Assembly: GCA_934167875.1 (NCBI GenBank)
Contig: CAKPMC010000006.1
Span: 16,646 to 80,645, forward strand
DNA from: an uncultured Bacilli bacterium
GTDB taxonomy: Bacteria > Bacillota_I > Bacilli_A > RF39 > UBA660
Length of the DNA stretch: 64,000 nucleotides
Direction of reading: 5' to 3'
Shown: piece by piece, positions 3,217-18,459 of the stretch
Layout: each line of letters begins with the position of its first letter
How positions within the stretch are numbered: position 1 is the first letter of the stretch
Made by a program: the position numbers and the translations under genes
Notes under the pieces: model-generated
Told to the model about the DNA's origin: nothing
The model's input: the letters and a program-made list of their open reading frames with translations, nothing else
The model's database searches: none

Positions 3217-4418
3217 TGAAAAAATTGTTTTCTAAGTTTCTACTACTATTAATAATTATTTCTATCATACTCCCTTCAACTGTTAATGCCGCCGATTTAA
3301 CTTATGGTCAAGTATTAGATGATTTGACCAATGCTAAAAAAGAATTAAATAAGAATAATCAATTAATTTCTGATAAAAATAATCAAATAGTTCAAAATAA
3401 CAGTACTATTAAAAATTTAAAATCAGAAGTAGAAAAAATGGGTGCTGAAGCAGTTGAACTTCAACAACAAATAGCAGATGCCAACACTGAAATAGATCAA
3501 AAAAAAGAACAAACTAAAAATTTAATTGTTTACTTACAAATGAGTCAAGGAAGTAATGTTTATTTAGATTATGTACTTGGTGGTGATTCTATAACTGATC
3601 TTGTTTATCGTTTATCTGTAGTAGAACAAATAACAGAATATAATGATAATATGGTTAAAGAATTAGAGGATTTAATAAGTAATAATGAAAAAAGAAAAGT
3701 TGAGTTAGCTAATAAACAAAAAGAATATGAAAACAAAATGACAACTTTAAATAATGAGGTTAATAAACTAACTAATTCAATAGCTAAGTTAGGTGACTTA
3801 TCACCAAGCTTGGAACAACAAGTAAAAGAAAAAGAAAAGTTAGTTAACTATTATAAATCTCAAGGATGTAAAAATCGTAGTGATGTAATAGGTAGAGATT
3901 GTGCTGTAACTAGTTCTAATGCTACTTTTTCAAGACCTATTAAAACAGGTTATGTGACTAGTTTTATTGGTTATAGATGGGGTAGTTTTCATAGAGGAAC
4001 TGATATAGGAAGCTCACTTGGAAGAAATACGCCATTATATTCGATTGGTAATGGTACTATTACTAGTATATGGAATGATGCGTATGGTGCAAAATGTATA
4101 AATGTTCAATATAGAACCTTAGATGGTAAATACTATACAGCTATTTATGCCCACCTAAGTAGATATGCATCAAATATATATGAAGGTATGCAAGTAAATT
4201 CTAATACTATACTTGGTTATATGGGTAATACAGGATATGCTTTTGGAGTACATCTTCACCTAGAAGTATGGCCATGTCGACTATATGGTGATAGTAATTG
4301 TAGCTCATGGAGTAAATATGTATCATTTGCTGAACGTAAATTTAGAGAAGGTTTTAAGGGAGCTGAAAGTGTAATATCATTCCCTAATAGAACATACCAA
4401 ACTTGGTATAATAAATAA
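3213..4418 (+). CDS. secreted coiled-coil M23 (LytM) peptidoglycan endopeptidase, PcsB/EnvC-like FtsEX partner
   Basis: Signal peptide, long coiled-coil region, C-terminal M23 motifs HRGTDIG ... HLHLEV. ATG overlaps the ftsX TGA stop. Confidence 0.75.
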   Translation: MMKKLFSKFLLLLIIISIILPSTVNAADLTYGQVLDDLTNAKKELNKNNQLISDKNNQIVQNNSTIKNLKSEVEKMGAEAVELQQQIADANTEIDQKKEQTKNLIVYLQMSQGSNVYLDYVLGGDSITDLVYRLSVVEQITEYNDNMVKELEDLISNNEKRKVELANKQKEYENKMTTLNNEVNKLTNSIAKLGDLSPSLEQQVKEKEKLVNYYKSQGCKNRSDVIGRDCAVTSSNATFSRPIKTGYVTSFIGYRWGSFHRGTDIGSSLGRNTPLYSIGNGTITSIWNDAYGAKCINVQYRTLDGKYYTAIYAHLSRYASNIYEGMQVNSNTILGYMGNTGYAFGVHLHLEVWPCRLYGDSNCSSWSKYVSFAERKFREGFKGAESVISFPNRTYQTWYNK

Positions 4419-4423
4419 TTAAT

Positions 4424-4463
4424 TTATGAGAGAAAAATTTTAAAATATTTTTCTCTTTTCTAT
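4424..4463 (+). terminator. rho-independent terminator after the M23 peptidase gene
   Basis: AGAGAAAAAT...ATTTTTCTCT stem followed by TTTTC. Confidence 0.4.
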
Positions 4464-4517
4464 TGTGGTTAAAAAGAAATAATATTATAATAAATTAAAT
4501 CAGGGAGTAGTATTATT

Positions 4518-5714
4518 ATGGTTGAAAAATTAGAACAAATTTATTTAATGGATAAAAACTTTAAATTTGTCCAAAGAACTAAAGACAAATTTATCTATAA
4601 GTATGAAGATAAAGAATTAGAACAATTAAATATTCTAGAACTTTTATTTTCTGAAGAAGAACAAAGAATTAAAAAAATAGATATCTATACTTTTTCAGGA
4701 TTAGAACCAATAGAAACTATGCATATTATAAGGGGTACAGACAATATCACTGAGGTTGATTATTATCCTAATGGATATGAGAATCTAACTATAGATAAAA
4801 TAAGCGAGCCTTATAGTATTAGTGTTTATCTTCAATTTAGTGAATTAGATGGTAATAATTACCAAGAATACAAAGAAATAGAATTGGTAAAAAAGGGTCA
4901 TAAAAAACACAAAGTATTATCTCAAATTCCATTAGAAGAAAATTACTATATTACTAAAGATAGTAGAATTCATTATATTTCTTCTAATAGTATAAGCAAA
5001 CTAAAAAGATTAACAGAGTTTTTAGTACCATCAATAAAAGAGATAGAAAAAAGATTATTTAATCCAGAAAGTATTGAATCATTAGAGAATGAAGATGATA
5101 ATGATCAAGCTATATTAGAACCTATTGATGGAACATATCCTGAACAAATGTATATATATGATCGTAATTATAATTTATTAGGAAAAAAATCTGGTGCTAT
5201 AGTATATCAAAATACTGAAGATGAAATTAAAGAGTTAGAAATTTATTTTACTGACGATAAGAGCAAATTAAAAGAAGTAAGATTAATTGATTATAGTGAT
5301 TCATATTTAGAAGGAATCAAAGTAAAATCTAAACGTAGAATAATTAGATTTTTGGTTACTAAAGATAATAAAATAAATGTAACATTATGTAATCGTAGAA
5401 AAGAACCAATGATAATAAATAGTCACACTATAGATAGAAATAATATTGCTGCTAGAGCCATAATAAATCAAAGTAATGAAATAGAAAAATTAGAAGTAAA
5501 AATCCAAAATCAATTAGGAACTTTCAATTTAACTAAATCACCTACTAAAAATATGGAATTTATTGATAAAAATAATGTTAGTTATCTAATTTCCTCAAAT
5601 TCTTTTGAACAGTTTAGAGTGTTTATAAGATATGTACCATTTATTCTAGGAGCATTAGAAAACAAATTAATCCCAGTTGACGAAGAAAAAAGTCCTATAT
5701 TAATTAAAAAGTAA
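4518..5714 (+). CDS. hypothetical protein (398 aa), first gene of the accessory segment
   Basis: Long ORF with RBS GGGAG. No motif recognised. Confidence 0.35.
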   Translation: MVEKLEQIYLMDKNFKFVQRTKDKFIYKYEDKELEQLNILELLFSEEEQRIKKIDIYTFSGLEPIETMHIIRGTDNITEVDYYPNGYENLTIDKISEPYSISVYLQFSELDGNNYQEYKEIELVKKGHKKHKVLSQIPLEENYYITKDSRIHYISSNSISKLKRLTEFLVPSIKEIEKRLFNPESIESLENEDDNDQAILEPIDGTYPEQMYIYDRNYNLLGKKSGAIVYQNTEDEIKELEIYFTDDKSKLKEVRLIDYSDSYLEGIKVKSKRRIIRFLVTKDNKINVTLCNRRKEPMIINSHTIDRNNIAARAIINQSNEIEKLEVKIQNQLGTFNLTKSPTKNMEFIDKNNVSYLISSNSFEQFRVFIRYVPFILGALENKLIPVDEEKSPILIKK

Positions 5715-5922
5715 AAGCTATCATCTTACAGCTTTTACTTTTTACTATTACATAATTTTTATATCTACATTCAATTAATAATCAACTCAATAATGTTGTT
5801 TAATTATTTTTAGAAATATGATATCATAAGCTTAATACAGAAAGATGATCCGAGATTAAAGATTCCATGTGAAGAAGTAGTAGATTTTGAAAATAAAGAA
5901 TTTTATCAAAATTTAATTAATC

Positions 5923-5977
5923 AAATTGTGGCAGCGAGCGTAAATCAATATGCATTTGCTGCAGCAGCCCACAATTT
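5923..5977. repeat. imperfect inverted repeat AAATTGTGGCAGC...GCTGCAGCAGCCCACAATTT
   Basis: 9-bp perfect outer arms AAATTGTGG/CCACAATTT plus inner CAGC/GCTG pairing. The arms resemble the AAATTTGTGG cassette core found at 7439-11239. Confidence 0.5.
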
Positions 5978-6087
5978 GGTATAAATAAAAGATTTATTTT
6001 AATGATAAGTGCAGTAGAAAGAAAAGTAAAAAATATAAATTAAAACAAATTTCATTAAAACCACTTGTTAAAAAGATAAAACAAAAA

Positions 6088-6513
6088 ATGTATCTTCCAG
6101 AGATGACAGTAGATGATTTCTTTACTACACAAGAAGAAAGAGATTTAAAAAGTAAAGAACACGTTGAAATGGTTGATATTAATGATATATCAGATTTTCC
6201 TAATCATCCTTTTAAAGTTATAGTAAATGAAGATATGTTAAATATGAGTAAGAGTATTGAAAAATATGGGGTGTTAGTACCGGCTTTAGTTAGACCAAAA
6301 GAAAATGGTAAATATGAAATGATTTCAGGTCATAGAAGAAAGAAAGCATTAGAAATTTTAGGAATACAAGAAATAGAAAAGATTACTGATAAATCTAGAG
6401 AAGAATTAATATTAACTAAAGAATCTGATAAAACTTACTGGTTTAATGGAAATTTAACTTATAATATTACTTTTAGGCTGAATATTTGCAATGACCATTA
6501 TTGGAGATATTAA
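6088..6513 (+). CDS. ParB/Srx-like N-terminal nuclease-domain protein, probably truncated
   Basis: VPALVRPKENGKYEMISGHRRKKALEILG matches the ParB N-terminal domain GxRR box. The C-terminal 30 aa is low-complexity with no HTH domain. Confidence 0.45.
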   Translation: MYLPEMTVDDFFTTQEERDLKSKEHVEMVDINDISDFPNHPFKVIVNEDMLNMSKSIEKYGVLVPALVRPKENGKYEMISGHRRKKALEILGIQEIEKITDKSREELILTKESDKTYWFNGNLTYNITFRLNICNDHYWRY

Positions 6514-6552
6514 ATTACTTAAGTGATTCTTTACTTATAAAAACCGATATAT

Positions 6553-7140
6553 TTAATAATTACTTTTTAATCTTTTTTGAATAATTTGGCTTTTTCGTTT
6601 CGTTTCATTTGTTAAATCTTCTAATGTGAATCCAAGCAATTGTGAAAGATATAGTATTTCTACTAATAATTTTTTTACAGTTTCTTTTTCAAGCTTTTGG
6701 ATTAAATCATTTCCTAATTTATAAAGTGTCAGAAATGTTTCTATAATATCTTTGTTACTTGTTGCAGAAAAATTTTCACTTAAAGATACATTTGTAATGT
6801 TACAAAAATATAATATCATAAATAAACAATCAATATATTCTTCTAATATATGATTTTTTTCACCAGTTTGATTTATTGACCAAAATTTAAAACATCTTGT
6901 TTCGTTAGCTAGTTCCCCAAATTCTACCAATAATTCAAGTTTATATTTTTTTATAATTTCAGGAGATTTGATATCAAATTGTAATGAAAATAAATCATCT
7001 AAATATTTTGTTTCTTTATATATTTCTTCTATGTTTAGCATAAATGTCACTTCTTTCTTAAAATCTATAGATTGATTATGAGTATTGTTAATTAATCGGA
7101 TTATATGATGTATTTTATCATTAAAATTAGTATTTAGCAA
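6553..7140 (-). CDS. all-alpha NTP-pyrophosphatase, dimeric dUTPase-like (tentative)
   Basis: Pattern ...LELLVEFGELANE..CFKFW....EEYIDCLFMILYF resembles dimeric dUTPase/MazG-like motifs, which are typical of phage and plasmid cargo. Confidence 0.3.
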   Translation of the reverse strand: MLNTNFNDKIHHIIRLINNTHNQSIDFKKEVTFMLNIEEIYKETKYLDDLFSLQFDIKSPEIIKKYKLELLVEFGELANETRCFKFWSINQTGEKNHILEEYIDCLFMILYFCNITNVSLSENFSATSNKDIIETFLTLYKLGNDLIQKLEKETVKKLLVEILYLSQLLGFTLEDLTNETKRKSQIIQKRLKSNY

Positions 7141-7430
7141 CTAACTGATGTTGTAACATACATCTAATGGAGATTTTGCTATGTTTCAAGATAATACTAA
7201 CTTAAACTTGTATAAATTATTTTATGATGTTGCTAAATAGGAAAGTATTTTAAATGTTGTTCAAAAAAATAATTGATATTACGGACACGGATTTAGAAAT
7301 TGAACATTATATCAATTAAATACCATAATAATAGAAAAGGGAGTTAAGATGACTTCCTTGTTTTATTGTAAAATAAGTGTTAAAATAAGTTACTAGAAAA
7401 CATTTAGTTTTACTTAGTTTTATTTAGTGT

Positions 7431-7463
7431 TATTTAGTAAATTTGTGGCCGGCATGTGTGTCC
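7431..7463 (+). repeat. cassette-boundary core, R-type copy 1 (TATTTAGTAAATTTGTGGCC...)
   Basis: Direct repeat shared with 7940, 9201, 9694 and 11228. Confidence 0.6.
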
Positions 7464-7571
7464 TATGCGTGTTCACAAAAAAAAGACCTATCAGTTAAGT
7501 GCTAGGCCACGAATTTTTGCTGATTGGACACGAATTTATTGGTTGATATGAGTCGTAATAAGGAGGGCATT

Positions 7572-7843
7572 ATGTTTAAATTAGAATCAAAATATACACC
7601 TAGTGGAGATCAACCACAGGCAATTAAGGAATTAGTAGAAGGAATTAAAGAAGGAAAAAGAGGCCAAGTTTTACTAGGGGCAACGGGGACAGGAAAAACT
7701 TTTACGATTGCTAATGTAATTAAAGAAGTTAATAAACAACCCTAGTACTTGCCCATAATAAAACACTTGCTGGACAACTTTATTCAGAATTAAAAGAATT
7801 GTTTCCAAATAATCACGTATGTTACTTTGTTTCTTATTATAGA
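7572..7843 (+). pseudogene. uvrB: uvrB 5' fragment A (promoter-proximal ~90 codons, frameshifted and truncated)
   Basis: [55 protein letters not shown] is near-identical to the N-terminus of intact UvrB at 11361. A 1-nt deletion near 7741 gives an in-frame stop at 7745, and homology continues in another frame to ...TTCTTATTAT at 7840. Confidence 0.8.
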
Positions 7844-7877
7844 AAAATCATAAAACCCCTTTTATTTCAATAATTTT

Positions 7878-7977
7878 AGTTTTATTTAATCCCTCGAAAA
7901 TACCATAAAAAGACTAAATAAAACTGGATAATGAAATGTAAATTTGTGGTCGAAATTCGTATTTATCCGTGTCTACT
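7878..7977 (+). repeat. L-type boundary: 13-bp-stem hairpin (AGTTTTATTTAAT...ACTAAATAAAACT) plus core AAATTTGTGGTCGAAATTCGTAT
   Basis: Near-identical 75-nt segment at 9655-9730. Confidence 0.6.
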
Positions 7978-8056
7978 AAAAAATTGAAAATAACGATAAT
8001 ATGTGATATATTATTAATCAATAAAAAGGGACTTTTTTAACATTGATGATTAAGGA

Positions 8057-9202
8057 ATGATTATAATGATTAAATATTATAAAGAACTAGAAAATAGATT
8101 GAATTATTATTTACCATTAGTAGATATTCAAGATAAAGGGAAAAAAGTATTATTTGATTATAAGACACCATTTTCATTTGTAGAAAAATATGAAGATTTA
8201 TTTAAAAATAGTGAATTTCTAATTACTATTTTTAAAGGGTTTAATATTGATGAATGGTTTCGAAATAATATATATATTGATTATGATAATGCCTGTTCTA
8301 TTTCTAGTGAATTTGAAAGTATAGAAGAAGAAATTTATTGCATATTAGAAGAATATGGGAAAATAAATTTTTCTTCTAGAGCAATAGAAAATTATTTATA
8401 TCTAATTAAAAGATTATCCATTTTATATATAGATTTATTTCCAAATAATAAACAATATTATACTTCACTTAATAATACAATAGTTGCAGCAATAGAAGAA
8501 TTAAAAAAATACAATACTATTCACTATATTCCAGATAAAGTAGATAATCTATATCAACCAGATGCATGGTATATAACACCTAATGGTTATTTATATAATG
8601 CCGGAAAATATGGACATAACGGTAGGGATTTAACGTTCAATTATAATAAAATGAAATATTTTATAAATAATAATGAAAATATATTAGACAATCATAAAAT
8701 TTCAAACGGATATTTAAATCTGTCTAAAAAAATAAAAGAAAATGGTTATATATCTGCAGGACAATTTAAGGTGTTTTTAAATTATATAAGTCAACCAGCC
8801 TATTTAGAGTCAATTAATGGAATACCAGTAACGAGAGAAAACCATATAATCCAATTAATTTTAGGTATAATTAATGCTCAAGCATGCTTTTATAGATTTT
8901 TTGAAGATTTATTTATATATACTGAAAAACCAGAAAATGAAATACATAAAATAATAAATTGGACTAATGATGATATAGGAGATGTATTAGTTAGGTGCTG
9001 TGGTTTTCATAAAATTGAATCAATGCTGGAAAAAACTATTACAACTAGTTGTATAAATTATGAAAATGAGTTGGAGGAATATATAAATAATGGGTGGAAC
9101 ATAGTATTTATACCACCATTTATTATTGATAAAGATAACCATTGTCTAAAAGAATATCCAGAAGATTTTTTAGTTATAAAAAGATTGTTGAAAACTATCT
9201 AG
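8057..9202 (+). CDS. hypothetical protein (381 aa), cargo of cassette 1
   Basis: Own TTGAAA-17-TATATT promoter at 7985-8013. No recognisable domain. Confidence 0.45.
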   Translation: MIIMIKYYKELENRLNYYLPLVDIQDKGKKVLFDYKTPFSFVEKYEDLFKNSEFLITIFKGFNIDEWFRNNIYIDYDNACSISSEFESIEEEIYCILEEYGKINFSSRAIENYLYLIKRLSILYIDLFPNNKQYYTSLNNTIVAAIEELKKYNTIHYIPDKVDNLYQPDAWYITPNGYLYNAGKYGHNGRDLTFNYNKMKYFINNNENILDNHKISNGYLNLSKKIKENGYISAGQFKVFLNYISQPAYLESINGIPVTRENHIIQLILGIINAQACFYRFFEDLFIYTEKPENEIHKIINWTNDDIGDVLVRCCGFHKIESMLEKTITTSCINYENELEEYINNGWNIVFIPPFIIDKDNHCLKEYPEDFLVIKRLLKTI

Positions 9203-9240
9203 TTTTATTTAGTAATTTGTGGCAAAATTCATCCTCATCC
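9201..9240 (+). repeat. cassette-boundary core, R-type copy 2 (AGTTTTATTTAGTAATTTGTGGCAAAATTCATCC)
   Basis: Direct repeat of the 7431 and 11213 elements. Confidence 0.6.
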
Positions 9241-9324
9241 AAAAAAAGACATATTTTTAATGTTATGAAAATAGATTAGGACACGAATTTGTTGGTTGAT
9301 ATGAGTCGTAATAAGGAGGGCATT

Positions 9325-9633
9325 ATGTTTAAATTAGAATCAAAATATACACCTAGTGGAGACCAACCACAAGCGATAGATGAGTTAGTTAAAGGAATAG
9401 AAAATGGCGAAAAACACCAAGTTTTACTAGGTGCAACTGGAACTGGAAAAACTTTTACGATTGCTAATGTAATTAAGGAAGTTAATAAACCAACCTTAGT
9501 ACTTGCCCATAATAAGACACTTGCGGGACAACTTTATTCAGAATTAAAAGAGTTGTTTCCAGAAAATCATGTATGCTATTTTGTTTCTTATTATAGGAAC
9601 CCATCGAAAACTATCTTATTCAGTACCTTTTAG
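9325..9633 (+). pseudogene. uvrB: uvrB 5' fragment B (in-frame 103-aa truncated copy retaining the Walker A GATGTGKT)
   Basis: [90 protein letters not shown], then diverges at the same TTCTTATTAT point (9594) as fragment A. Confidence 0.8.
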
Positions 9634-9730
9634 ATTTATTTAGTACCTCAAAGATACTATAAAAAGACTAAATAAAACTAGATAATAAAATGTAAATTTG
9701 TGGCCAAAATTCGTATTCATTCGTATTTAT
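9632..9730 (+). repeat. L-type boundary: hairpin (AGATTTATTTAGT...ACTAAATAAAACT) plus core AAATTTGTGGCCAAAATTCGTAT
   Basis: Parallels 7878-7977. Confidence 0.6.
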
Positions 9731-9822
9731 AAAAAATAATAAATTTAAACTAATATATTTTTATTATTTTTTTTGTAAGATTAAAGTTATAATAATAAAA
9801 ATATGATAAAATAATATGAGAG

Positions 9823-10533
9823 GTGATTTTAGTGAAATTAAATGATATTGAACAATTAACAAATGAAGAAATAGAAAAGATATATGAAAAATGTTTAGAA
9901 TATGCAAATAGAATTAAAAATCCAGATTTAAAGGAATGTTGTTTAGAAATTTATAATGATTATAAATCAAAACTTATAGCAAAACCAGCTACTGGAGATC
10001 CATGTCATCATTTTTTTAGAGGTGGTTTAATATATCATAGTTATTGCGTAACCAGAAATGCTATTATGATTGCAGAATTGTATGATTATATAAAATTAGA
10101 TATGGACTTAATAATATTTGGTTCATTATTACATGATATAGGAAAGACAAATGATTATAAAGATTTTGATTCTATAGAAAAAGGTGAAACAGGAATACTA
10201 AGTAGTGGTTCATATATGGTGGGTCATTCATACGAAGGAACTCATATTGTTGAAAATTATTTAGAAAAATATAATTTAGAAGATAAGTTTAAATATCAAG
10301 TTTTACATATGATAGGAAGTCATATGAAAGAATTTAGTGAATGGGGAGTATTAACATCACCAAAAATGTTAGAAGTAATAGTAATTAACTATGGTGATTC
10401 AATGGATGCTAGATTAGATAAAACAAGAAATGGTATTAATAATTCTGAAAAAGGTGAATTATATTATAATGAAAATCAAACGGCAAAATTTTATAAATCA
10501 ATAAATCCATATTACGAAAATGATAATTTATAA
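9823..10533 (+). CDS. HD-superfamily phosphohydrolase (YhaM-like HD domain), cargo of cassette 2
   Basis: HHFFRGGLIYHSYCV ... LLHDIGK ... HSYEGTH ... SHM ... D: an HD metal-binding motif series. Confidence 0.55.
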   Translation: MILVKLNDIEQLTNEEIEKIYEKCLEYANRIKNPDLKECCLEIYNDYKSKLIAKPATGDPCHHFFRGGLIYHSYCVTRNAIMIAELYDYIKLDMDLIIFGSLLHDIGKTNDYKDFDSIEKGETGILSSGSYMVGHSYEGTHIVENYLEKYNLEDKFKYQVLHMIGSHMKEFSEWGVLTSPKMLEVIVINYGDSMDARLDKTRNGINNSEKGELYYNENQTAKFYKSINPYYENDNL

Positions 10534-10663
10534 TTAAAATAAATATGCATCAAAAAGAAAAATTATAAAATATAAAAAAATATTCAAGAAGAAAATTTAA
10601 CTAATGATGGAATTAACGAGCTGATTATGGAACATTATATTTTCATAAATAAAGGAGTAAAAA

Positions 10664-11086
10664 ATGCAAAAAAAATTAAGTTTTATGACCTTGAATGATG
10701 TAAATATTGGAATAAGTAAAATTGAATTAAATAAATGGGATTTAATAATTATTGATAAATCTGGTAAATATTGTTTAAAAATCTGTGTGCAATATAATTG
10801 GAAAGATATCAATAACATAAAAACTGGTCAAAAACAAGAAATTGATTTTAACGAATATTGTTTAGCTGAAAACAATGAATCTGCTTTGATTTGGCCATCT
10901 AATTCCTATGTAGAAAAAATAAGTGATGATTCTATATGTTTTAATTTGGAATTTAAAAATTTATCTAATTCGACGCATTATATGAATAAAAGAGGTTGTT
11001 TTGATATTCAGTTAAATTCTCTTGAGGCTAAGGTTTTTATTGATTATAAAGATGCAATAGATGATTCTGTCATATATAATCTATAA
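10664..11086 (+). CDS. hypothetical protein (140 aa), cargo of cassette 2
   Basis: ORF with RBS AAAGGAG. No motif recognised. Confidence 0.35.
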   Translation: MQKKLSFMTLNDVNIGISKIELNKWDLIIIDKSGKYCLKICVQYNWKDINNIKTGQKQEIDFNEYCLAENNESALIWPSNSYVEKISDDSICFNLEFKNLSNSTHYMNKRGCFDIQLNSLEAKVFIDYKDAIDDSVIYNL

Positions 11087-11212
11087 AAAAAAGAAGTTGT
11101 TATGATAGAAAATAAAATAATGTATAATAATATATTGGAAGCATTAATTTTGCTTCCTTGTTTTATTATCAAAATAATGTTAAAATGAATTATTGAGAAA
11201 GACTTTAATTAC

Positions 11213-11360
11213 TTATTTTTATTTAATAAATTTGTGGCCGAAATTCGTATCCAAGAAAAAAAGATACATTTTTGATGCTGTAAAAATAGGTTAGGATACG
11301 AATTTTTAAAAATAGGATACGAATTATCTGGCTGGTAGTAGTCATAGTAAGGAGGACCAT
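11213..11360 (+). promoter_or_regulatory. uvrB upstream region: R-type core copy 3 plus dyad AAATTCGTATCC-N43-GGATACGAATTT(+GGATACGAATT), RBS AGGAGG
   Basis: Seen directly in the sequence. The same half-site GGACACGAATTT precedes both uvrB fragments (7526, 9279). Confidence 0.5.
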
Positions 11361-13319
11361 ATGTTCAAAATTCATTCAAAATATACACCGAGTGGTGATC
11401 AACCCCAGGCAATTAAGGAATTAGTAGAAGGTATTAAAGAAGGAAAACGCGACCAGGTTTTACTAGGAGCAACGGGAACAGGAAAAACTTTTACGATTGC
11501 TAATGTAATTAAAGAAGTTAATAAACCAACCCTAGTTTTAGCTCATAATAAAACACTTGCGGGACAACTTTATTCAGAATTAAAAGAATTGTTTCCTAAC
11601 AATCACGTATGCTATTTTGTATCCTATTATGATTATTACCAACCAGAAGCCTATGTTCCATCTACAGATACCTATATAGAAAAAGATTCATCTATTAATG
11701 ATGAAATTGATGAACTTCGTCACTATGCAACAAGCTCTCTTTTATCTTATGATGATGTCATTGTAGTAGCCAGTGTAAGTTGTATTTACGGTATTGGTGA
11801 AGTAGAAGAATATCGAAACAAAATGCTAAGCATAGGAGTAGGAGATAATGTAGAAAGAAACACTATCATGACGAAACTAGTAGAAATGATGTACGAAAGA
11901 AATGATTTTGATTTTAAGCGTGGTACCTTTAGAGTAAAGGGTGATGTTCTAGAAATCATACCAGCCTATGAAAACACAAAAGGGTATAGAATTGAGTTTT
12001 TTGGTGATGAAATAGATAGAATTAGTGAAATAGATTCTCTAACTGGAGCAGTTATTCAAAATAAAAAAACATTAACTATTTTTCCAGCCAGTCACTTTGT
12101 AACTAGTGATGAAAAACTAATAGAGGCAGTGAAAAGAATTAAACTAGAATTAGCTGATAGGATTCAATATTTTAAAGATAATAATAAACTACTAGCAGCA
12201 GAAAGAATAGAACAGCGTACAAACTATGATATAGAAATGTTAACTGAAACAGGATTCTGTCGTGGTATTGAAAACTATTCTCGTCATATGGCTTTACGTG
12301 GTGAAGGAGAAACCCCAACTACTTTAATGGATTTCTTTCCAAAAGATTTTTTATTAGTAATAGATGAATCCCATGTAACACTTCCTCAGGTAAGGGGAAT
12401 GTATAATGGTGATAGAGCTAGAAAAATGAATTTAGTAGAGTATGGCTTTAGACTACCAAGTGCACTAGATAATAGACCATTAAAATTTGAGGAATTTGAG
12501 AAAAAAATCAATCAAGTTATTTATGTATCAGCAACTCCAGGAGATTACGAATTAGAAAAGACTAGTAATCAGTTTATTGAACAAATTATTCGTCCAACTG
12601 GACTTCTTGATCCAACAATTGAAGTAAGACCAAGTAAAGGTCAAATTGATGATTTAATTGGTGAAATTAAAGCTAGAATTGCGAAAAACGAACGTACTTT
12701 AATAACCACTCTAACAATTAGAATGGCAGAAGAATTAGCGAATTACCTAAAAGATATTGATATTAAAGTGGCATATTTACATAGTGAAGTAAAAACATTA
12801 GAAAGAATGCGCATTATTAGAGATTTAAGATTAGGTAAATATGACTGTATTGTTGGAATCAATCTATTACGTGAAGGAATTGATATACCAGAAGTTAGTT
12901 TGATAGCAATTATGGATGCTGATAAAGAAGGATTCTTGCGTAGTGAAAGAAGTTTAATTCAAACAATTGGTAGATGTGCTAGAAATGCTAGTGGTCATTG
13001 TATTATGTATGCTGATAAAATAACAGACAGTATGGATAAGGCTATTAAAGAAACAATGCGTCGTCGTACAATTCAGGAAGAATATAATAAAGAACATGGT
13101 ATTACGCCACAGACAATCAAAAAAGAAATTAGAGATTTAATTAGTAATGTCGATGACAACAAAGAAAAACAAACATCTCCTAAGAAGAAAGATAAAAAAG
13201 AATTATTAAAAATGATAGATGAAATCGAAGAATCTATGAAACAAGCAGCAAAGGAATTAGATTTCGAACGTGCTATGCAGTTAAGAGATGCATTATTTGA
13301 ATTAAAGAGTGAATTATAA
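11361..13319 (+). CDS. uvrB: excinuclease ABC subunit B
   Basis: Full-length 652 aa with helicase motifs, beta-hairpin region [10 protein letters not shown], and C-terminal UvrB-UvrC interaction domain ...[10 protein letters not shown]... Confidence 0.95.
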
Positions 13320-14158
13320 TGAAAAAGTTTAAGAAAATATATATAGAAATCACGAATATCTGTAATCTTAATTGCTCTTTTTGTAGTAAAGATAATCGTA
13401 TAAAAGAAAGTATTTCGCTAACGAATATGGAAGAACTATTAAAGAAAATTAATGATTATACGGATTATGTTTATCTTCATGTAAAAGGTGAACCATTACT
13501 ACACCCAAAGTTAAAAGAAATCTTAGATTTATGTGAAAAATATCATAAAAAAGTAAATATTACGACGAATGCTACACTTCTAAAATCCAAAGAAACAATC
13601 CTATCTCATACAGCTATTCGCCAAATTAATTTATCAGTACATAGTGAAAATCAAGAAAAAAATTATTTAGAAGAAATCTTTGAAGTAACTGATAAACTGA
13701 AAGAAAAGAATATTGTTTATCGTTTTTGGACTATGAATGATAATAATCTAAATAAAAAATCAACAGAATTAGTGGAAAAAATAATAAATCATTACAAGTT
13801 GTCCCCAGAAATTGTGGAAAAAATAAAAACAGACAACAATATTAAAATAAATAGTAACACTTATGTGAATAAAGCTAATCAATTTGTTTGGCCTAATATT
13901 AATAATGATTATTATAACGATAAAGGATATTGTTACGCTTTAAAAGATCAATTAGCTATTTTAGTAGACGGTACTGTTGTACCATGCTGTTTAGATAGTG
14001 ATGGCATCATTAATTTAGGAAACATTTATAGTAATACTATAGAAGTTATTATAAATAGTAGTCGCTATCAAAAAATGAGAAGTGGTTTCTGCAATCGTAA
14101 AGTAACTGAAGAACTATGTAAACACTGTAGTTACAAAGAAAGATTTGACATTAATTAA
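13319..14158 (+). CDS. radical SAM / SPASM-domain enzyme (279 aa)
   Basis: CNLNCSFC (CxxxCxxC) near the N-terminus plus GEPLL. The C-terminal Cys-rich region PCCLDSDG...CKHC is SPASM/twitch-like. ATG overlaps the uvrB TAA. Confidence 0.65.
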   Translation: MKKFKKIYIEITNICNLNCSFCSKDNRIKESISLTNMEELLKKINDYTDYVYLHVKGEPLLHPKLKEILDLCEKYHKKVNITTNATLLKSKETILSHTAIRQINLSVHSENQEKNYLEEIFEVTDKLKEKNIVYRFWTMNDNNLNKKSTELVEKIINHYKLSPEIVEKIKTDNNIKINSNTYVNKANQFVWPNINNDYYNDKGYCYALKDQLAILVDGTVVPCCLDSDGIINLGNIYSNTIEVIINSSRYQKMRSGFCNRKVTEELCKHCSYKERFDIN

Positions 14159-14188
14159 ATTATAAATATAATAGAAAAGGTGATTTGA

Positions 14189-14656
14189 ATGAAAATAGTA
14201 CAAAATGAAGTATGTTATGTAGAAAGAGAAGATATTTATAATTTAAGAATGTTTCCTCAGTATGTTGTTTCTGAAATTAACTTTAGATCTAATTCTAAAT
14301 ATATAAAATTTGAAAATCCTAGATCAATAAATTATTTCTCAGAAAGTGATTTTATAATCGACTATACTGAAATATGCAATTTATCATTAGCAGAAATAAC
14401 TCTAAAGATAGAAAAATTAAAACAAAGTTTAAGTAATTTAGCTGGTGAATGGTTATATGCTTCTGAAAATTTAAGAGAAAGTTTGGATAGGAATAGAGAT
14501 TATAATTATAAAATTAAGTCAATTAAATACATACTAATGTCTATGGAAAAATATATGAATAATAAAGAAACTTATGATGAAGAAATAGAACAGTTATCAT
14601 TTACTAAAAGTAAATTAAAAGAACCTATAAAAGCTTTAGAATATCATTATCAGTAA
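14189..14656 (+). CDS. hypothetical protein (155 aa)
   Basis: ORF with RBS AAAGGTG. Confidence 0.35.
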   Translation: MKIVQNEVCYVEREDIYNLRMFPQYVVSEINFRSNSKYIKFENPRSINYFSESDFIIDYTEICNLSLAEITLKIEKLKQSLSNLAGEWLYASENLRESLDRNRDYNYKIKSIKYILMSMEKYMNNKETYDEEIEQLSFTKSKLKEPIKALEYHYQ

Positions 14657-14726
14657 GATATTGACATGATTGCTTATATATAGTAAAATAATCCTCCTGA
14701 TTAAAATTAGGAGAAAAGGTGATTAT

Positions 14727-15023
14727 ATGGGTATATATAATAAAGTATATATAGGGCATGTTGAAACAGTTAATCTTGATGTAAGTGTACACCAATCACC
14801 AATAGAGTCTAAAGTAATTGCACTCCAATTGAATAATATTGATAAAAACAGAAATATTATAACTTATAAACCATTAAGACAATATAGTGAATATTATAAG
14901 TTAGTTAGTGTAGAGGAAAAACCATTAACAGGTACTTTTGGTAATATTGTTGGTGATAAGGATATTAATTTTGCCTTAAAGAAAACTGGAAAACAGGAAG
15001 TAAAAAAACTGAGAAAGTGTTAA
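14727..15023 (+). CDS. hypothetical protein (~98 aa; track ORF 14670 probably starts at the internal Met after RBS AGGAGAAAAGGTG)
   Basis: ORF only. Confidence 0.3.
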   Translation: MGIYNKVYIGHVETVNLDVSVHQSPIESKVIALQLNNIDKNRNIITYKPLRQYSEYYKLVSVEEKPLTGTFGNIVGDKDINFALKKTGKQEVKKLRKC

Positions 15024-15107
15024 ATGCACTTTCTTTTTCTATAAACATTTAACTGATTGCTATAAAGAACTTATTTTGTTAAAATTGTTGTAAAGGAGAG
15101 GAATGAA

Positions 15108-15497
15108 ATGAAAAATAGACAATATAAATTATTACTATTTTTTGGATTGTTAGTAATGTACTATATCTTTGCTTTAAACAATATAACCATTCCTTGTTTA
15201 TTTAATAAGATAACTAATTTATATTGTCCAGGATGTGGTGTTACCAGAATGTTATTATCCATTTCAAAATTAAATTTTTACCAAGCCTTTAGATATAATC
15301 AATTAGTATTTATATTTTTGCCCTTTATTTTATTACTATTAATAGACTTTTTATTAAAATGGCTGAAGAATCAAAATAATTACATATATTTAAGAATAAA
15401 TAATAAAGTATGGGTAGTTTTGTTAATAATCGTTTTAGTATTTGGAATACTAAGAAATATTCCCCTCTTTGATTATCTAAAACCAATTATTATATAG
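15108..15497 (+). CDS. small membrane protein, DUF2752-like (CPGCG motif)
   Basis: LYCPGCGVTRM plus 3-4 TM segments. Confidence 0.35.
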   Translation: MKNRQYKLLLFFGLLVMYYIFALNNITIPCLFNKITNLYCPGCGVTRMLLSISKLNFYQAFRYNQLVFIFLPFILLLLIDFLLKWLKNQNNYIYLRINNKVWVVLLIIVLVFGILRNIPLFDYLKPIII

Positions 15498-15619
15498 GAT
15501 TATTTATTTGAAAAGTTACTTAGCTGGGTAACTTTTTTAAATACAAATAATTAATTGTCTTGTCAAACAAATGTTTCATTGATATAATAAAAATGTATTT
15601 TCATAAAAAAGAAAATTTG

Positions 15620-15628
15620 TGGTATAAT
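15620..15628 (+). promoter_or_regulatory. extended -10 (TGgTATAAT) promoter for uvrA
   Basis: AAATTTGTGGTATAAT lies 23 nt upstream of the uvrA ATG. Confidence 0.4.
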
Positions 15629-15651
15629 AACATGCAGAAAAAGGTGATAGT

Positions 15652-18459
15652 ATGGATAAAATTATTATAAAAGGTGCTAGAGAAAACAATTTAAAAAATG
15701 TGGATTTAGAGTTACCAAAAAATAAATTAATAGTAATGACTGGGGTATCAGGAAGTGGAAAATCTTCTCTTGCTTTTGATACTATTTATGCCGAAGGCCA
15801 AAGAAGATATGTAGAAAGTTTATCGGCTTATGCAAGACAGTTTTTAGGAGGAACAGAAAAACCAGATGTAGATTCTATTGAAGGATTATCTCCTTCTATT
15901 AGTATTGACCAAAAAACAACCTCTAAAAACCCTCGTTCAACAGTAGGAACAGTAACGGAAATTTATGACTACTTAAGACTTTTATTTGCAAGAATTGGAA
16001 TCCCTTATTGCCCAGAACATCATATTCCAATATCAAGTCAAACTGTTGATGAAATTGTAGATAAAGTATTAGAAAATGAAATAGGTACTAAGTTAATTAT
16101 TATGGCGCCAGTTGCTCATGGTGAAAAAGGTACTCATAAAGATTTATTAGAAGACCTAAGAAAAGAAGGTTATGTAAGAGTAAGAGTAAATGGAGAAATG
16201 CTTGATTTAAGTGAAGAAATTACGCTAGAAAAAAATAAAAAAGATAACATTGATGTAATTATTGATAGAATTGTTTTAAAAGATGGCATTCGTAGTCGTT
16301 TATCAGAATCTATTGAACAAGCTATCAAACTATCAAAGGGAAAAGTAGTAATTGATTATGTTGGTAATAAAGAAGTAATCTATTCTGAAAACTTTGCTTG
16401 TCCATACTGTGATTTCTCACTTCCAGAATTAGAACCAAGAATGTTCTCATTTAATGCACCATTTTGTAGTTGCCCTGACTGTAAAGGCCTTGGTGTGAAA
16501 CTAAAAATGGATCCTGATTTAGTAGTACCAGACGCTACTAAAAGTTTAAATAATGGAGCTATTAAAACTTTAACAGATGATCCTGAAGCACTTGATTTTA
16601 AACGATTAGAATGTTTATGTAAGCATTATAAAATAGATATGAATAAATCATGGAATAAACTATCTAAAAAAGAACAGAATTACATTTTATATGGTAGTGA
16701 TGAAGTAATCCATTTTCAGTATCATTCTAAAAGTGGTAACCTTTATAATCAAAAAGATTTCTATGAAGGAATTATCAATAATCTAGAAAGAAGATACATG
16801 GAAACAAGTAGTACCTGGATTCGTGATTGGTTAGAAAATTATATGTTAGAAACCATATGTGAAACCTGTCATGGAGCAAGACTTCAAGATAATGTCTTAT
16901 CAGTTTTAGTAGGTGGAAAAAACATTTACGAAGTTACTTGCATGAGTATTAAACAATTAATTCCATTCTTTGAAAATCTAAAATTAACGAAATCTCAAAA
17001 AGAAATATCAGGATTATTAGTAAAAGAAATTTTATCTCGATTAACATTCTTAAAAAATGTAGGACTTGAATATTTAACGTTAAGTCGTTCTGCTGGCACC
17101 TTATCAGGTGGAGAAGCCCAAAGAATAAGACTTGCTACACAAATAGGTTCAAAACTAACAGGAGTTCTTTATGTACTAGATGAACCAAGTATAGGATTAC
17201 ACCAAAAAGATAACGAAAAATTAATTAAATCATTATTAGAAATGAGAGATTTAGGAAATACTCTAATCGTAGTAGAACATGATACTGATACAATGTTAGC
17301 CAGTGACTTTTTAGTAGATGTAGGACCTGGTGCTGGAGATCATGGTGGAGAAATCATTGCTGCTGGTACTCCAGAAGAAGTAATGAAAAATGAAAACAGT
17401 ATTACTGGTCGTTATTTAAGTGGTAAAGAAAAAATAGAAGTACCTACTACTAGAAGAAAAGGTACTAAAAAGTTTATTGAAATTAAGGGTGCAAGTGAAA
17501 ATAATTTAAAAAATATTAATGTTAAATTTCCACTAGGAACCTTTACTTGTGTTACCGGTGTATCAGGAAGTGGAAAAAGTACCTTAGTAAATCAAATTTT
17601 ATGTAATGCTGCTTATCAAAAAATATATAATTCCAAAGTGAAACCAGGTAAACATAAAAAAATAACCGGTTTAGAAGAAATTGATAAGGTAGTTGAAATT
17701 AGTCAAAATCCAATCGGTAGAACGCCAAGAAGTAATCCAGCTACCTATACAGGAGTATTTGATGAAATCAGAGATTTATTTACAACTACGAAAGAAGCTA
17801 AAATGTATGGCTTTGGAAAAGATCGTTTTTCTTTCAATGTAAAAGGTGGTCGTTGTGAAGCTTGCCGTGGTGATGGTGTTAAAAAAATAGAAATGCATTT
17901 CTTACCAGATGTATATATTCCTTGTGAAGTATGTCATGGTACAAGGTATAATAGTGAAACTTTAAGAATAAAATATAAAGACAAAAATATTGCGGAAGTA
18001 TTAGATATGCGTGTAAGTGAAGCACTTGAATTCTTTGAAAATGTTCCTAAAATCAAATCTAAACTTCAAGTGTTAGAAGATGTGGGAATTGGTTACATTA
18101 AATTAGGACAAAGTGCTACAACCTTATCAGGTGGAGAAGCTGGACGTGTAAAACTAGCTAAAGAATTACAGAAAAAGCCAACTGGTAAAACACTTTACAT
18201 TATGGACGAACCTACAACAGGTCTTCATAGTGCTGATATTAAGAGATTACTTGCAATTATTCAAAAAATAGTAGATAATAAAGATACCGTAATAGTAATT
18301 GAACACAACCTAGATGTTATAAAATGTGCTGATTATATAATTGATTTAGGACCTACTGGTGGCGATGGTGGTGGTGAAGTAATAGCTACTGGAACACCAG
18401 AAGAAATTGCCAAAGTAAAGGAATCAGCTACAGGAGAATTTTTAAAGAAAATGTTATAG
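15652..18459 (+). CDS. uvrA: excinuclease ABC subunit A
   Basis: 935 aa with two ABC modules (GVSGSGKSS / GVSGSGKST, two LSGGE signatures) and zinc-finger cysteines. Confidence 0.95.
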   Translation: MDKIIIKGARENNLKNVDLELPKNKLIVMTGVSGSGKSSLAFDTIYAEGQRRYVESLSAYARQFLGGTEKPDVDSIEGLSPSISIDQKTTSKNPRSTVGTVTEIYDYLRLLFARIGIPYCPEHHIPISSQTVDEIVDKVLENEIGTKLIIMAPVAHGEKGTHKDLLEDLRKEGYVRVRVNGEMLDLSEEITLEKNKKDNIDVIIDRIVLKDGIRSRLSESIEQAIKLSKGKVVIDYVGNKEVIYSENFACPYCDFSLPELEPRMFSFNAPFCSCPDCKGLGVKLKMDPDLVVPDATKSLNNGAIKTLTDDPEALDFKRLECLCKHYKIDMNKSWNKLSKKEQNYILYGSDEVIHFQYHSKSGNLYNQKDFYEGIINNLERRYMETSSTWIRDWLENYMLETICETCHGARLQDNVLSVLVGGKNIYEVTCMSIKQLIPFFENLKLTKSQKEISGLLVKEILSRLTFLKNVGLEYLTLSRSAGTLSGGEAQRIRLATQIGSKLTGVLYVLDEPSIGLHQKDNEKLIKSLLEMRDLGNTLIVVEHDTDTMLASDFLVDVGPGAGDHGGEIIAAGTPEEVMKNENSITGRYLSGKEKIEVPTTRRKGTKKFIEIKGASENNLKNINVKFPLGTFTCVTGVSGSGKSTLVNQILCNAAYQKIYNSKVKPGKHKKITGLEEIDKVVEISQNPIGRTPRSNPATYTGVFDEIRDLFTTTKEAKMYGFGKDRFSFNVKGGRCEACRGDGVKKIEMHFLPDVYIPCEVCHGTRYNSETLRIKYKDKNIAEVLDMRVSEALEFFENVPKIKSKLQVLEDVGIGYIKLGQSATTLSGGEAGRVKLAKELQKKPTGKTLYIMDEPTTGLHSADIKRLLAIIQKIVDNKDTVIVIEHNLDVIKCADYIIDLGPTGGDGGGEVIATGTPEEIAKVKESATGEFLKKML

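Follow-up and report, generated by a model that had tools for sequence, protein, structure and literature searches.

The decay that turns integrative and conjugative elements (ICEs) into cis-mobilizable elements (CIMEs), and their tandem accretion at the end of a target gene, have been described for the ICESt1/ICESt3 model (PMC5704250). Here we report a related arrangement at the 5' end of the DNA-repair gene uvrB in an uncultured Bacilli bacterium. The DNA analysed, referred to below as the window, is a stretch of 64,000 nucleotides (nt) of contig CAKPMC010000006.1; its segment 4440-7430 lies between an ftsE-ftsX-M23 peptidase block and a series of repeated uvrB starts, the uvrB array. An initial annotation, made from the sequence alone, had read the whole segment as accessory DNA with remnants of mobile elements. 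The explanation that fits best, and that as a whole we hold to be probable, is that integrase-less, decayed elements have accreted in tandem, in the manner of CIMEs, at a new target, the uvrB 5' end, and that 4440-7430 combines three origins: a gene native to the locus, the scar of a deletion and, from one decayed element (C0), the right part. Two further elements, C1 and C2, are flanked on the left by uvrB codons 1-89 joined to a left-end sequence (L-end) and on the right by a right-end block (R-end) joined to uvrB codons 1-89. In the window C0 keeps its right repeat only; in the sister strains L123 and L128 it retains both. The comparison sequences, given as L-numbered contigs, were metagenome assemblies, including metagenome-assembled genomes (MAGs) from GTDB, and sister strains of the same species were recovered by means of the ParB fragment in C0.

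The locus resembles CIME/ICE accretion in that one end of a conserved gene has taken up site-specific elements in tandem, the older units have lost their integration and transfer genes while keeping att-type repeats, single units are gained and lost, and an intact conjugative-type element has the same end sequence. No recombinase or conjugation Pfam domain was found in the array, and the truncated parB gene of C0 (parB') is tied to a ParA-ParB-adhesin element with the same L-end. It differs in its target, a protein-coding gene entered at the 5' end (uvrB codon 89), and not a 3' end or a tRNA gene; in its long repeat (about 490 nt), with a promoter, a palindromic block in the 5' untranslated region (5'UTR) and 89 codons; and in its many very small units, with 1.2-2 kb of cargo.

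ICEs of the SXT/R391 group insert into the 5' end of prfC and supply a new promoter and 5' coding end, so that the gene stays functional. They use a tyrosine integrase and a 17-bp identity segment, belong to Gammaproteobacteria, and do not typically form stacks of integrase-less cassettes. The uvrB elements likewise hit the 5' part of a housekeeping gene and restore its promoter and start; unlike SXT/R391, to which they have no sequence relationship, they occur with stacked integrase-less cassettes.

A third likeness is to ParA-ParB-adhesin conjugative elements of Clostridia and Bacilli (L135 and the remnant L139), which have the same order of ParA, ParB, a small protein and an adhesin with SpaA and thioester (TED) domains, and a ParB about 50% identical. 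Those elements interrupt the target gene, leaving its 5' end unreplaced, and carry a large serine recombinase at the right end, whereas the uvrB elements have conserved short sites (site S) and palindromes at both ends, and no large serine recombinase was seen at them. In L139 (4636-16570) the decayed ParA'-ParB' remnant lies in a split P-type cation ATPase gene together with bAvd and a reverse-transcriptase fragment, resembling a diversity-generating retroelement; its last gene, adjoining the 3' part of the target, encodes a large serine recombinase of 534 aa.

Mobile integrons and attC arrays also consist of small, promoter-poor units without a recombinase of their own, separated by imperfect palindromic sites and varying unit by unit. 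The uvrB array differs from them in having no IntI or attI, in repeats that hold a functional gene start, in growing into a housekeeping gene, and in folded L-end sites without compensatory support. An integron was rejected: there was no recombinase among the genes called around the array, and the L-end palindromes showed no covariation.

Further identities were tried and set aside. An autonomous ICE would not fit, as no integrase, relaxase or type IV secretion genes were found in window 4400-11400. For a prophage or phage satellite, PHROGs matched only ParB-like and NTP-PPase families, and the L-end motif and ParB gave nothing in IMG/VR; three IMG/VR matches to the S motif lay inside coding sequence and were attributed to chance. 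A plasmid counterpart did not emerge from megablast with the large element (no match) or tblastn with ParB (at most 50% identity). An RNA or tRNA target was rejected on a sub-threshold Rfam match (E = 0.5) and the absence of tRNA genes in 4000-12000. PADLOC gave only weak matches to defence systems, near E = 1e-3, and an HD/Cas3-like match (4.8e-5) reflects the HD fold alone. GInts (PMC5385486) differ in architecture, and no ginABCD-like operon was present.

Repeated uvrB starts and element ends

Codons 1-89 of uvrB, with about 50-220 nt of upstream sequence, occur three times in the window: as R1, as R2 and as the start of the intact gene (Table 1). R1 and R2 leave the uvrB sequence at the same point (TCT TA/T TAT AG versus TCC TA/T TAT GA, the slash marking the break) and run on into a common L-end of about 130 nt; an R-end lies upstream of each uvrB copy. 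A metagenome scan with the L-end motif returned 20 loci, half of which (10/20) had uvrB codons 1-90 directly upstream. All junctions, both at these loci and in L082, L123 and L128, fell at TCN TA/, nucleotide 2 of uvrB codon Y89.

The inverted repeat of the L-end is conserved, with 0 compensatory changes among 10 variants, and is followed by site S, TAAATTTGTGGCYGAAATKCGTRTCC, often then ATTCGTGTCC. In the R-end, S stands in the same orientation as in the L-end and is followed by one or two inverted copies (GGACACGAATTT). The R-end as a whole is an imperfect palindrome of about 100 nt between the promoter and the ribosome-binding site, and has one compensatory pair. With these counts, an RNA or single-stranded DNA structure of the L-end was rejected. 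By eye, the R-end held no convincing LexA/SOS box (CGAAC-N4-GTTCG). The R-end block did not occur in the native uvrB upstream regions of L084, L101, L106 and L115, and it appears to be element-borne.

A hairpin followed by TTGTTT-17-TGnTAAAAT was found upstream of uvrB, or of its first fragment, in L003, L101, L106, L107, L114 and the window (about 11137-11190). This arrangement is probably the uvrB promoter, and the copies in the window would derive from the native uvrB upstream region.

The same L-end also heads a large element. In L105 and L106 the order is uvrB codons 1-89, L-end, ParA (276 aa), ParB (317 aa), a protein of 240 aa and a TED/SpaA adhesin, which is longer than 872 aa and has one thioester and five SpaA domains. 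This gene order is also annotated in the Clostridia conjugative backbone L135, together with MobC, a relaxase and PcfB. An identical ParA follows a uvrB fragment in L115, in another context (mnmE-mnmG-rsmG-noc-femAB-like-uvrB); the context differs, and the element therefore crosses host lineages.

A GTDB MAG of the Acutalibacteraceae (Clostridia; L039, 8539-9992) carried uvrB codons 1-90, an S-like site AAATTTGTGACTTAAATTCGTGTAA, a 289-aa cargo protein resembling leucine-rich-repeat (LRR) proteins, a second S-like site and an intact uvrB. Here the break follows TCCTA, and the junction position and S site are as in the window.

What lies between the 398-aa gene p398, in the native part of the segment, and uvrB varies from species to species and even among strains. 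The window and L123 both have C1, which is gone from L128 as exactly one cargo-plus-repeat unit. L128 has an older cargo (NT5C-GH2), with a partial uvrB fragment and an L-end before it and a hybrid S after it; this hybrid, at L128:4001, is flanked by R-type sequence on the left and L-type sequence on the right, and there is no uvrB fragment. L082 has two L-ends and different cargo. The DNA from p398 and the peptide deformylase gene def to uvrB thus appears to consist of stacked units that differ in age and that deletion has eroded and recombination reshuffled.

Comparison of L143 (4733-7280) with window 11114-15674 gave an identical radical-SAM protein, 96.9% identity in the uvrB region and only 80% in ftsE-M23. 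Both p398 and the array are missing from L143, where a membrane Zn-ribbon-like protein (346 aa) and a major facilitator superfamily (MFS) transporter precede the palindrome-bearing uvrB upstream region. L143 marks a recombination breakpoint just upstream of uvrB.

Table 1. Features of segment 4440-7430 and of the adjoining uvrB array, in window positions.
Feature	Position	Strand	Basis or remark
Intergenic region between M23 and p398	4419-4517	+	hairpin about 4431-4459, T-run; site claimed at 4463 lies inside
p398, 398 aa	4518-5714	+	conserved synteny, no Pfam
p398 terminator hairpin	5715-5760	+	collinearity with L123 stops at 5760
def', 5' remnant of peptide deformylase gene	5815-6034	+	start lost, stop at 5983, cut after about codon 80
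Filler, 3' piece of 215-aa P-loop gene, 41 nt	6035-6075	+	L082 match
C0 remnant, right part	6070-7571		strain comparison
parB', first ~89 codons (ParB_N, GHRR)	6070-6354	+	94.7% nt identity to L105 1838-2122 and L106 3202-3486
Read-through tail of parB' ORF, LEILGIQEIEKITDK...WRY, stop	6355-6513	+	no match outside C0 copies
Dimeric dUTPase (dUTPase_2)	6553-7041	-	probably 162 aa; ORF reaches TTG at 7140
Non-coding or decayed stretch	7141-7336		no blastn match outside C0 copies
Hairpin (7337-7359) and uvrB-type promoter: TTGTTT (7358-7363), 17 nt, TGt-TAAAAT (7381-7386)	7337-7386	+	terminator-like hit; promoter putative
10-nt tandem unit ATTTAGTTTT, 3.7 copies	7402-7438	+	Tandem Repeats Finder (TRF); outer R-end part, inverted copy in every L-end
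R-end of C0	7438-7537	+	site S (TAAATTTGTGGCC..GTGTCC) and inverted copies GGCCACGAATTT (7505-7516) and GGACACGAATTT (7526-7537)
uvrB' R1, codons 1-89 with 1-nt deletion	7572-7840	+	unambiguous end after TCTTA (7836)
L-end of C1	7841-7973	+	inverted repeat TTTTAGTTTTATTTA / TAAATAAAACT, then site S at 7939-7973
C1 cargo, 381-aa protein without assigned function	8057-9202	+	followed by R-end, R2, L-end
uvrB' R2	9325-9594	+	repeat alignment
C2 cargo, HD-domain protein (236 aa)	9823-10533	+	Pfam
C2 cargo, 140-aa protein	10664-11086	+	ORF
C2 hairpin, promoter, R-end	11137-11325	+	promoter copy about 11137-11190
Intact uvrB, 652 aa	11361-13319	+	integration point after nt 2 of codon Y89 (11626; ambiguous to 11630)

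Downstream, a radical-SAM/SPASM gene (13319-14158) begins at the last base of the uvrB stop codon, with a 1-nt overlap at 13319, and also follows uvrB in L002, L082, L084 and L114. This gene and three small genes part uvrA from uvrB, compared with the adjacent uvrBA of Bacillus (L006, L007). The uvrA upstream region (15611-15628) contains AAAATTTGTGGTATAAT, an extended -10-like sequence, and has AAATTTGTGG in common with site S, which may be a coincidence or may reflect a common regulatory motif.

Three probable origins within the segment 4440-7430

The distance between M23 and uvrB is not ancestral, in agreement with the initial annotation: it is about 6.9 kb in the window versus about 130-200 nt in the close GTDB relatives L003 and L004. 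The single non-core island of about 7 kb that had been proposed has to be divided. From about 5761 to the intact uvrB at 11361 the DNA is accessory and of mobile-element origin, whereas 4419-5760 is native.

A homologue of p398 lies directly after ftsE-ftsX-M23 (PcsB-like) in every relative examined (L082, L084, L088, L092, L101/L107, L123, L129 and L136). In L084 nothing else separates M23, p398 and uvrB, which stand in that order, and a similar hairpin stands 3' of the homologue. The family recovered by searching comprises 15 clusters, all metagenomic, with 40-98% identity and lengths of 392-403 aa; a further homologue, in L101/L107, is 37% identical. L003 and L004, Erysipelotrichaceae more distant than these, have no p398, and their M23 is next to uvrB. 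Because its homologues always follow ftsE-ftsX-M23, p398 is a native, lineage-specific resident gene of this Erysipelotrichaceae group and not cargo. All three open reading frames (ORFs) named in the initial annotation exist, but its grouping of the 398-aa gene with the accessory DNA fails on this synteny. The comparison with relatives that it had proposed gave a split answer: p398 is at this position in every clade member examined, while the DNA that follows it, up to uvrB, varies.

Profile searches matched ParB_N and dUTPase_2 in the other two proteins; p398 had no Pfam, PHROG or PADLOC match. An AlphaFold2 model of p398 from the 15-sequence alignment had a pLDDT of 83.2 and consists of two tandem beta-meander-plus-helix modules, and Foldseek found nothing like it in the PDB (best TM 0.19). 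Judged from synteny, its fixed place behind ftsEX-pcsB hints at a connection with division or the cell wall.

The terminator reported after M23 was seen on reading the sequence, as an AT-rich hairpin and T-run at about 4431-4465; the hairpin is low in GC and falls below the cut-off of the terminator scanner (3 G-C pairs). The core-like sequence TATTGTGGTTAAAAAG that had been placed at 4463 was not upheld. It has only TTGTGG in common with the real repeated site, a chance-level match: the window holds 27 copies of TTGTGG where 17.8 would be expected, and at 4463 the longer motif of the site, AATTTGTGGYNRNAW, finds no match even with one mismatch allowed. The M23-p398 intergenic region aligns with relatives from 4400 onward (L082, L084, L088), including relatives without the array. 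GC content, which had been suggested as a test of the island against its flanks, proved uninformative: native p398 (0.236) is as AT-rich as the cargo (range 0.215-0.263; parB' 0.263, dUTPase 0.215), and uvrB is at 0.314.

Upstream of ftsE, at 249-1524, lie two tandem YitT/DUF2179 membrane-protein genes, the first cut by the window start; the pair is kept in L082, L088 and L092. Many contigs (L085-L087, L090-L091, L136-L138) stop within a few hundred bases past the p398 homologue, consistent with assembly breaks at the repeated uvrB-fragment array.

Collinearity with the sister strains is interrupted after p398. Window 4176-5760 corresponds to L123 1-1587 at 97.2% identity and the match resumes over 6083-13400 at 96.0%; between them 5761-6082 (322 nt) stands in place of L123 1588-10016 (8.4 kb). 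L128 matches window 5315-6055, that is, the 3' end of p398 and the first ~80 def codons, and matches again from 6070; L128 768-10003 (9.2 kb) is missing from the window. The def' remnant of about 220 nt is 80-84% identical in nt sequence to the intact def of L082/L083, L101 and L107 and is part of a 92% match to L128. Intact copies of 206-211 aa stand at the same position in L082, L101 and L128 (208 aa in L128) and carry the Pep_deformylase Pfam domain; the window copy, with only the 5' part left, no start and an internal stop, is not an intact ORF. The gene def is regarded as the native neighbour of uvrB. The filler next to it is 98% identical over 54 nt to L082 14695-14748, where the 215-aa P-loop gene is cassette cargo, and is not present in L123 or L128. 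Its flanks are microhomologies of 8 nt (AAAAAATA, to def) and 6 nt (ATAAAA, to parB).

Microhomologies at the joints are typical of illegitimate deletion, and 5761-6087 is best regarded as a deletion scar. Two microhomology-mediated deletions would have fused the def pseudogene, the P-loop piece and parB', dropping 8-9 kb kept in the sister strains. The lost DNA would include an older uvrB fragment (R0), its L-end and parA. The def pseudogene, the P-loop fragment, the uvrB-type promoter and the R-end were all absent from the initial annotation.

The remainder of the segment belongs to C0. In L123 and L128 the complete element reads R0 uvrB fragment, L-end, ParA, ParB' (148 aa), dUTPase on the minus strand, R-end, R1. 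ParA is present in these strains and in L105/L106; in the window none lies upstream of parB', in keeping with the deletion. The parB' ORF (6088-6513, plus strand, 141 aa) matched only ParB_N (PF02195, 1.2e-12, residues 25-107) and a ParB-like PHROG. It has a GHRR box and no helix-turn-helix (HTH), just as first described. Its homology to the 317-aa ParB of L105/L106 ends at nt 6354 (about residue 89), and the central HTH and C-terminal domains are missing. The earlier reading of this fragment as mobile cargo holds: it is the remnant of a conjugative-element parB, with 94.7% nt identity to the full gene of L105/L106. C0 thus looks like a decayed, non-autonomous remnant of a conjugative element.

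All C0 copies are cut at the same point (..GHRRKKA/LEILGIQEIEKITDK..WRY and stop), yet their N-parts differ by up to 22%. The same tail was seen after ParB N-parts only 78-82% identical (P0143, P0144). From the constant tail it follows that the left part of C0 was exchanged in mosaic fashion, or that insertions recurred at the GHRRKKA codons. Read most simply, parB was truncated once in an ancestor, and the left part was later swapped with incoming elements.

The dUTPase covers profile positions 1-162 of 162 of PF08761 (7.8e-27). Its homologues (n=184) are mostly 161-165 aa long, and for this reason the true start is probably the ATG at 7041, the choice of the gene callers, giving 162 aa. Orthologue-like copies with 75-84% identity occur in other chromosomal contexts (in L120-L122 the neighbours are PPDK and ScpA/ScpB), and the homology is confined to 6552-7064, about 20 nt beyond the gene. 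The C0 dUTPase therefore looks like a captured chromosomal gene: it is cargo here, as had been proposed, but not a phage or ICE hallmark, since its homologues sit in unrelated chromosomal contexts. In the stretch that follows, a short LysR-HTH-like ORF can be made out, as a reading only. The AT-rich iterated units described at the right of the segment were recovered by TRF with a period of 10.

Proposed formation of the stack and competing explanations

The account we prefer starts from the anatomy of the units, the junction position, the conservation of ends across taxa, a conjugative-type element with the same left end, a rebuilt uvrB, and polymorphism between strains, all of which were observed. 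An incoming element would insert site-specifically into uvrB after nucleotide 2 of codon Y89 (TCN TA/). Its right end would carry the promoter and 5'UTR with uvrB codons 1-89, so that uvrB is rebuilt and the start supplied by the element becomes the working start; the former 5' end, joined to the L-end, would be pushed upstream and remain there as a dead fragment. As insertion recurs and the genes for transfer and recombination are then lost, the integrase-less C0, C1 and C2 would pile up, and later elements may enter at the regenerated site or at att sites already resident. Recombination between the ~490-nt repeats would afterwards add or remove units, and deletion would erode them. We infer that a site-specific recombinase from an intact element does the insertion, joining in trans the attP (the uvrB'/L-end of the element) with uvrB codon 89. 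As to its type the hints diverge: L139, a relative of the ParAB backbone, ends in a large serine recombinase, whereas the 12-mers present in several copies at both ends are reminiscent of the arm-type sites used by tyrosine systems.

Several points weigh against this account. No integrase or recombinase was found in at least 10 distinct cassettes or in the readable parts of the large element. The right end of the intact element was not seen, the large element of L105 being readable only to the adhesin. S has the same orientation at both cargo ends, and together with the hybrid S at L128:4001 this means that S itself could be the recombination site, a different mechanism. Repeat arrays are prone to mis-assembly in metagenomes, though the same architecture recurs in independent samples. 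Finally, the status of parB' as a dead fragment may be doubtful, with the 141-aa ORF constant on 16 contigs and its odd tail common to diverged N-parts.

This last point leads to the alternative that fares best, in which parB' and the dUTPase are not debris and are instead functional residents under selection, a ParB_N-only CTPase/nuclease-like protein and a housekeeping dUTPase. The 141-aa ORF is unchanged on 16 contigs and the 148-aa variants occur on 9-20, the dUTPase is full-length against its Pfam profile, and it is kept in all C0-bearing strains. The ParB ORF, however, has an unrelated tail after 6354 and no HTH or central domain of its 317-aa parent, its ParA has been lost, and conservation within a species is expected of neutral DNA with a recent common origin. 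We consider selection on these genes possible but doubtful.

It is unlikely, though worth stating, that in these gut Firmicutes the uvrB locus serves as a platform dedicated to cassette capture, in which a trans recombinase of a conjugative element inserts and shuffles S-bounded, recombinase-less cargo. If it were, each insertion would rewrite the uvrB promoter, 5'UTR and first 89 codons, and the palindromic 5'UTR would put uvrB, and perhaps the cargo, under element control. This would be an integron-like logic in the 5' end of a DNA-repair gene, common to Erysipelotrichales and Oscillospirales.

A stricter integron-like scheme, to which we give a low probability, would make the ~25-35-nt S or the ~100-nt palindrome the true site, with a trans recombinase swapping cargo and the uvrB pieces as one type of module. 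S does stand in direct orientation on either side of every cargo and every uvrB fragment, at least 10 different small cargo units have no recombinase, and the fold of the R-end is an imperfect palindrome in which one change is compensatory. The hybrid S at L128:4001, where the uvrB fragment between two cargos is lost, would also fit, but ordinary deletion between 25-nt repeats can give one hybrid S. Neither an integron-type integrase nor any other recombinase adjoins the array, no cassette was found outside the uvrB context, and the L-end hairpin has no covariation. A naive uvrB has no S site, and first entry would still need the event at codon 89.

Homologous recombination could also act without any dedicated recombinase: circular DNAs with some 300-450 bp from the promoter and 5' region of uvrB would enter by RecA-dependent single crossover (Campbell-type) and loop out and re-enter. 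This scheme, improbable as the source of the array, draws on the ~490-nt homology blocks, which are 73-90% identical and mosaic among R1, R2 and R3, on cassettes without an integrase, and on the presence or absence of C1, for which the break can fall anywhere in the repeat. The swapped ParB' N-parts with a constant tail and the L143 breakpoint just upstream of uvrB also suit it. Against it, the truncated copy always ends at TCNTA/ and passes into the conserved L-end, even in L039, where uvrB has only ~68% aa identity over the N-terminal 93 residues; the same L-end heads the large conjugative-type element in three genomic backgrounds; and the conserved 12-mers at both ends look like protein-binding sites. 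Homologous recombination probably reshuffles the array, yet it leaves the first entry into the naive uvrB of a distant host unexplained.

That all of 4440-7430, the 398-aa gene included, is one phage, ICE or plasmid island bounded by a core-like site at 4463 is highly improbable: GC is low throughout (0.22-0.26), L003 and L004 have M23 adjoining uvrB without p398, and phages also carry ParB_N and dUTPase_2 families, but p398 follows M23 in every clade member across 37-98% identity (with uvrB directly next in L084), the intergenic region containing 4463 is kept in array-free relatives, the motif there is no commoner than chance, and collinearity with the sister strain ends at 5760, not at 4440.

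Significance of the uvrB array

In the full-text literature searched there was no report of uvrB as an integration target, and the uvrB-targeted element stack seems to be undescribed. What sets it apart from known systems is the uvrB 5' target, the long repeat with its palindromic 5'UTR, the many tiny recombinase-less units, and the spread over Erysipelotrichales and Oscillospirales; the logic is that of known accretion of ICEs, integrative and mobilizable elements (IMEs) and CIMEs.

For 4440-7430 the outcome is mostly corrective. On its own the segment is ordinary, and its value is as the oldest, eroded end of the stack: one supposed cargo gene is native, and the remainder is erosion debris. 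That gene accompanies the ftsEX-PcsB division cluster as a conserved, lineage-specific partner, and its confidently predicted fold matches nothing in the PDB.

The repeats also have practical consequences. They break metagenome assemblies just after p398, can yield chimeric UvrB proteins, and mark a hotspot of recombination between strains.

For the organisms themselves, uncultured gut Erysipelotrichaceae and at least one lineage of Clostridia, codon 89 of uvrB is where a family of elements lands site-specifically. Each element would swap the promoter and the N-terminal 89 residues of a core repair enzyme and leave the old copy behind. The strain-variable cargo stack includes an HD-domain protein, P-loop proteins, a GH2 protein with a nucleotidase, MFS transporters and an LRR protein, and the array is a visible historical record of successive insertions.

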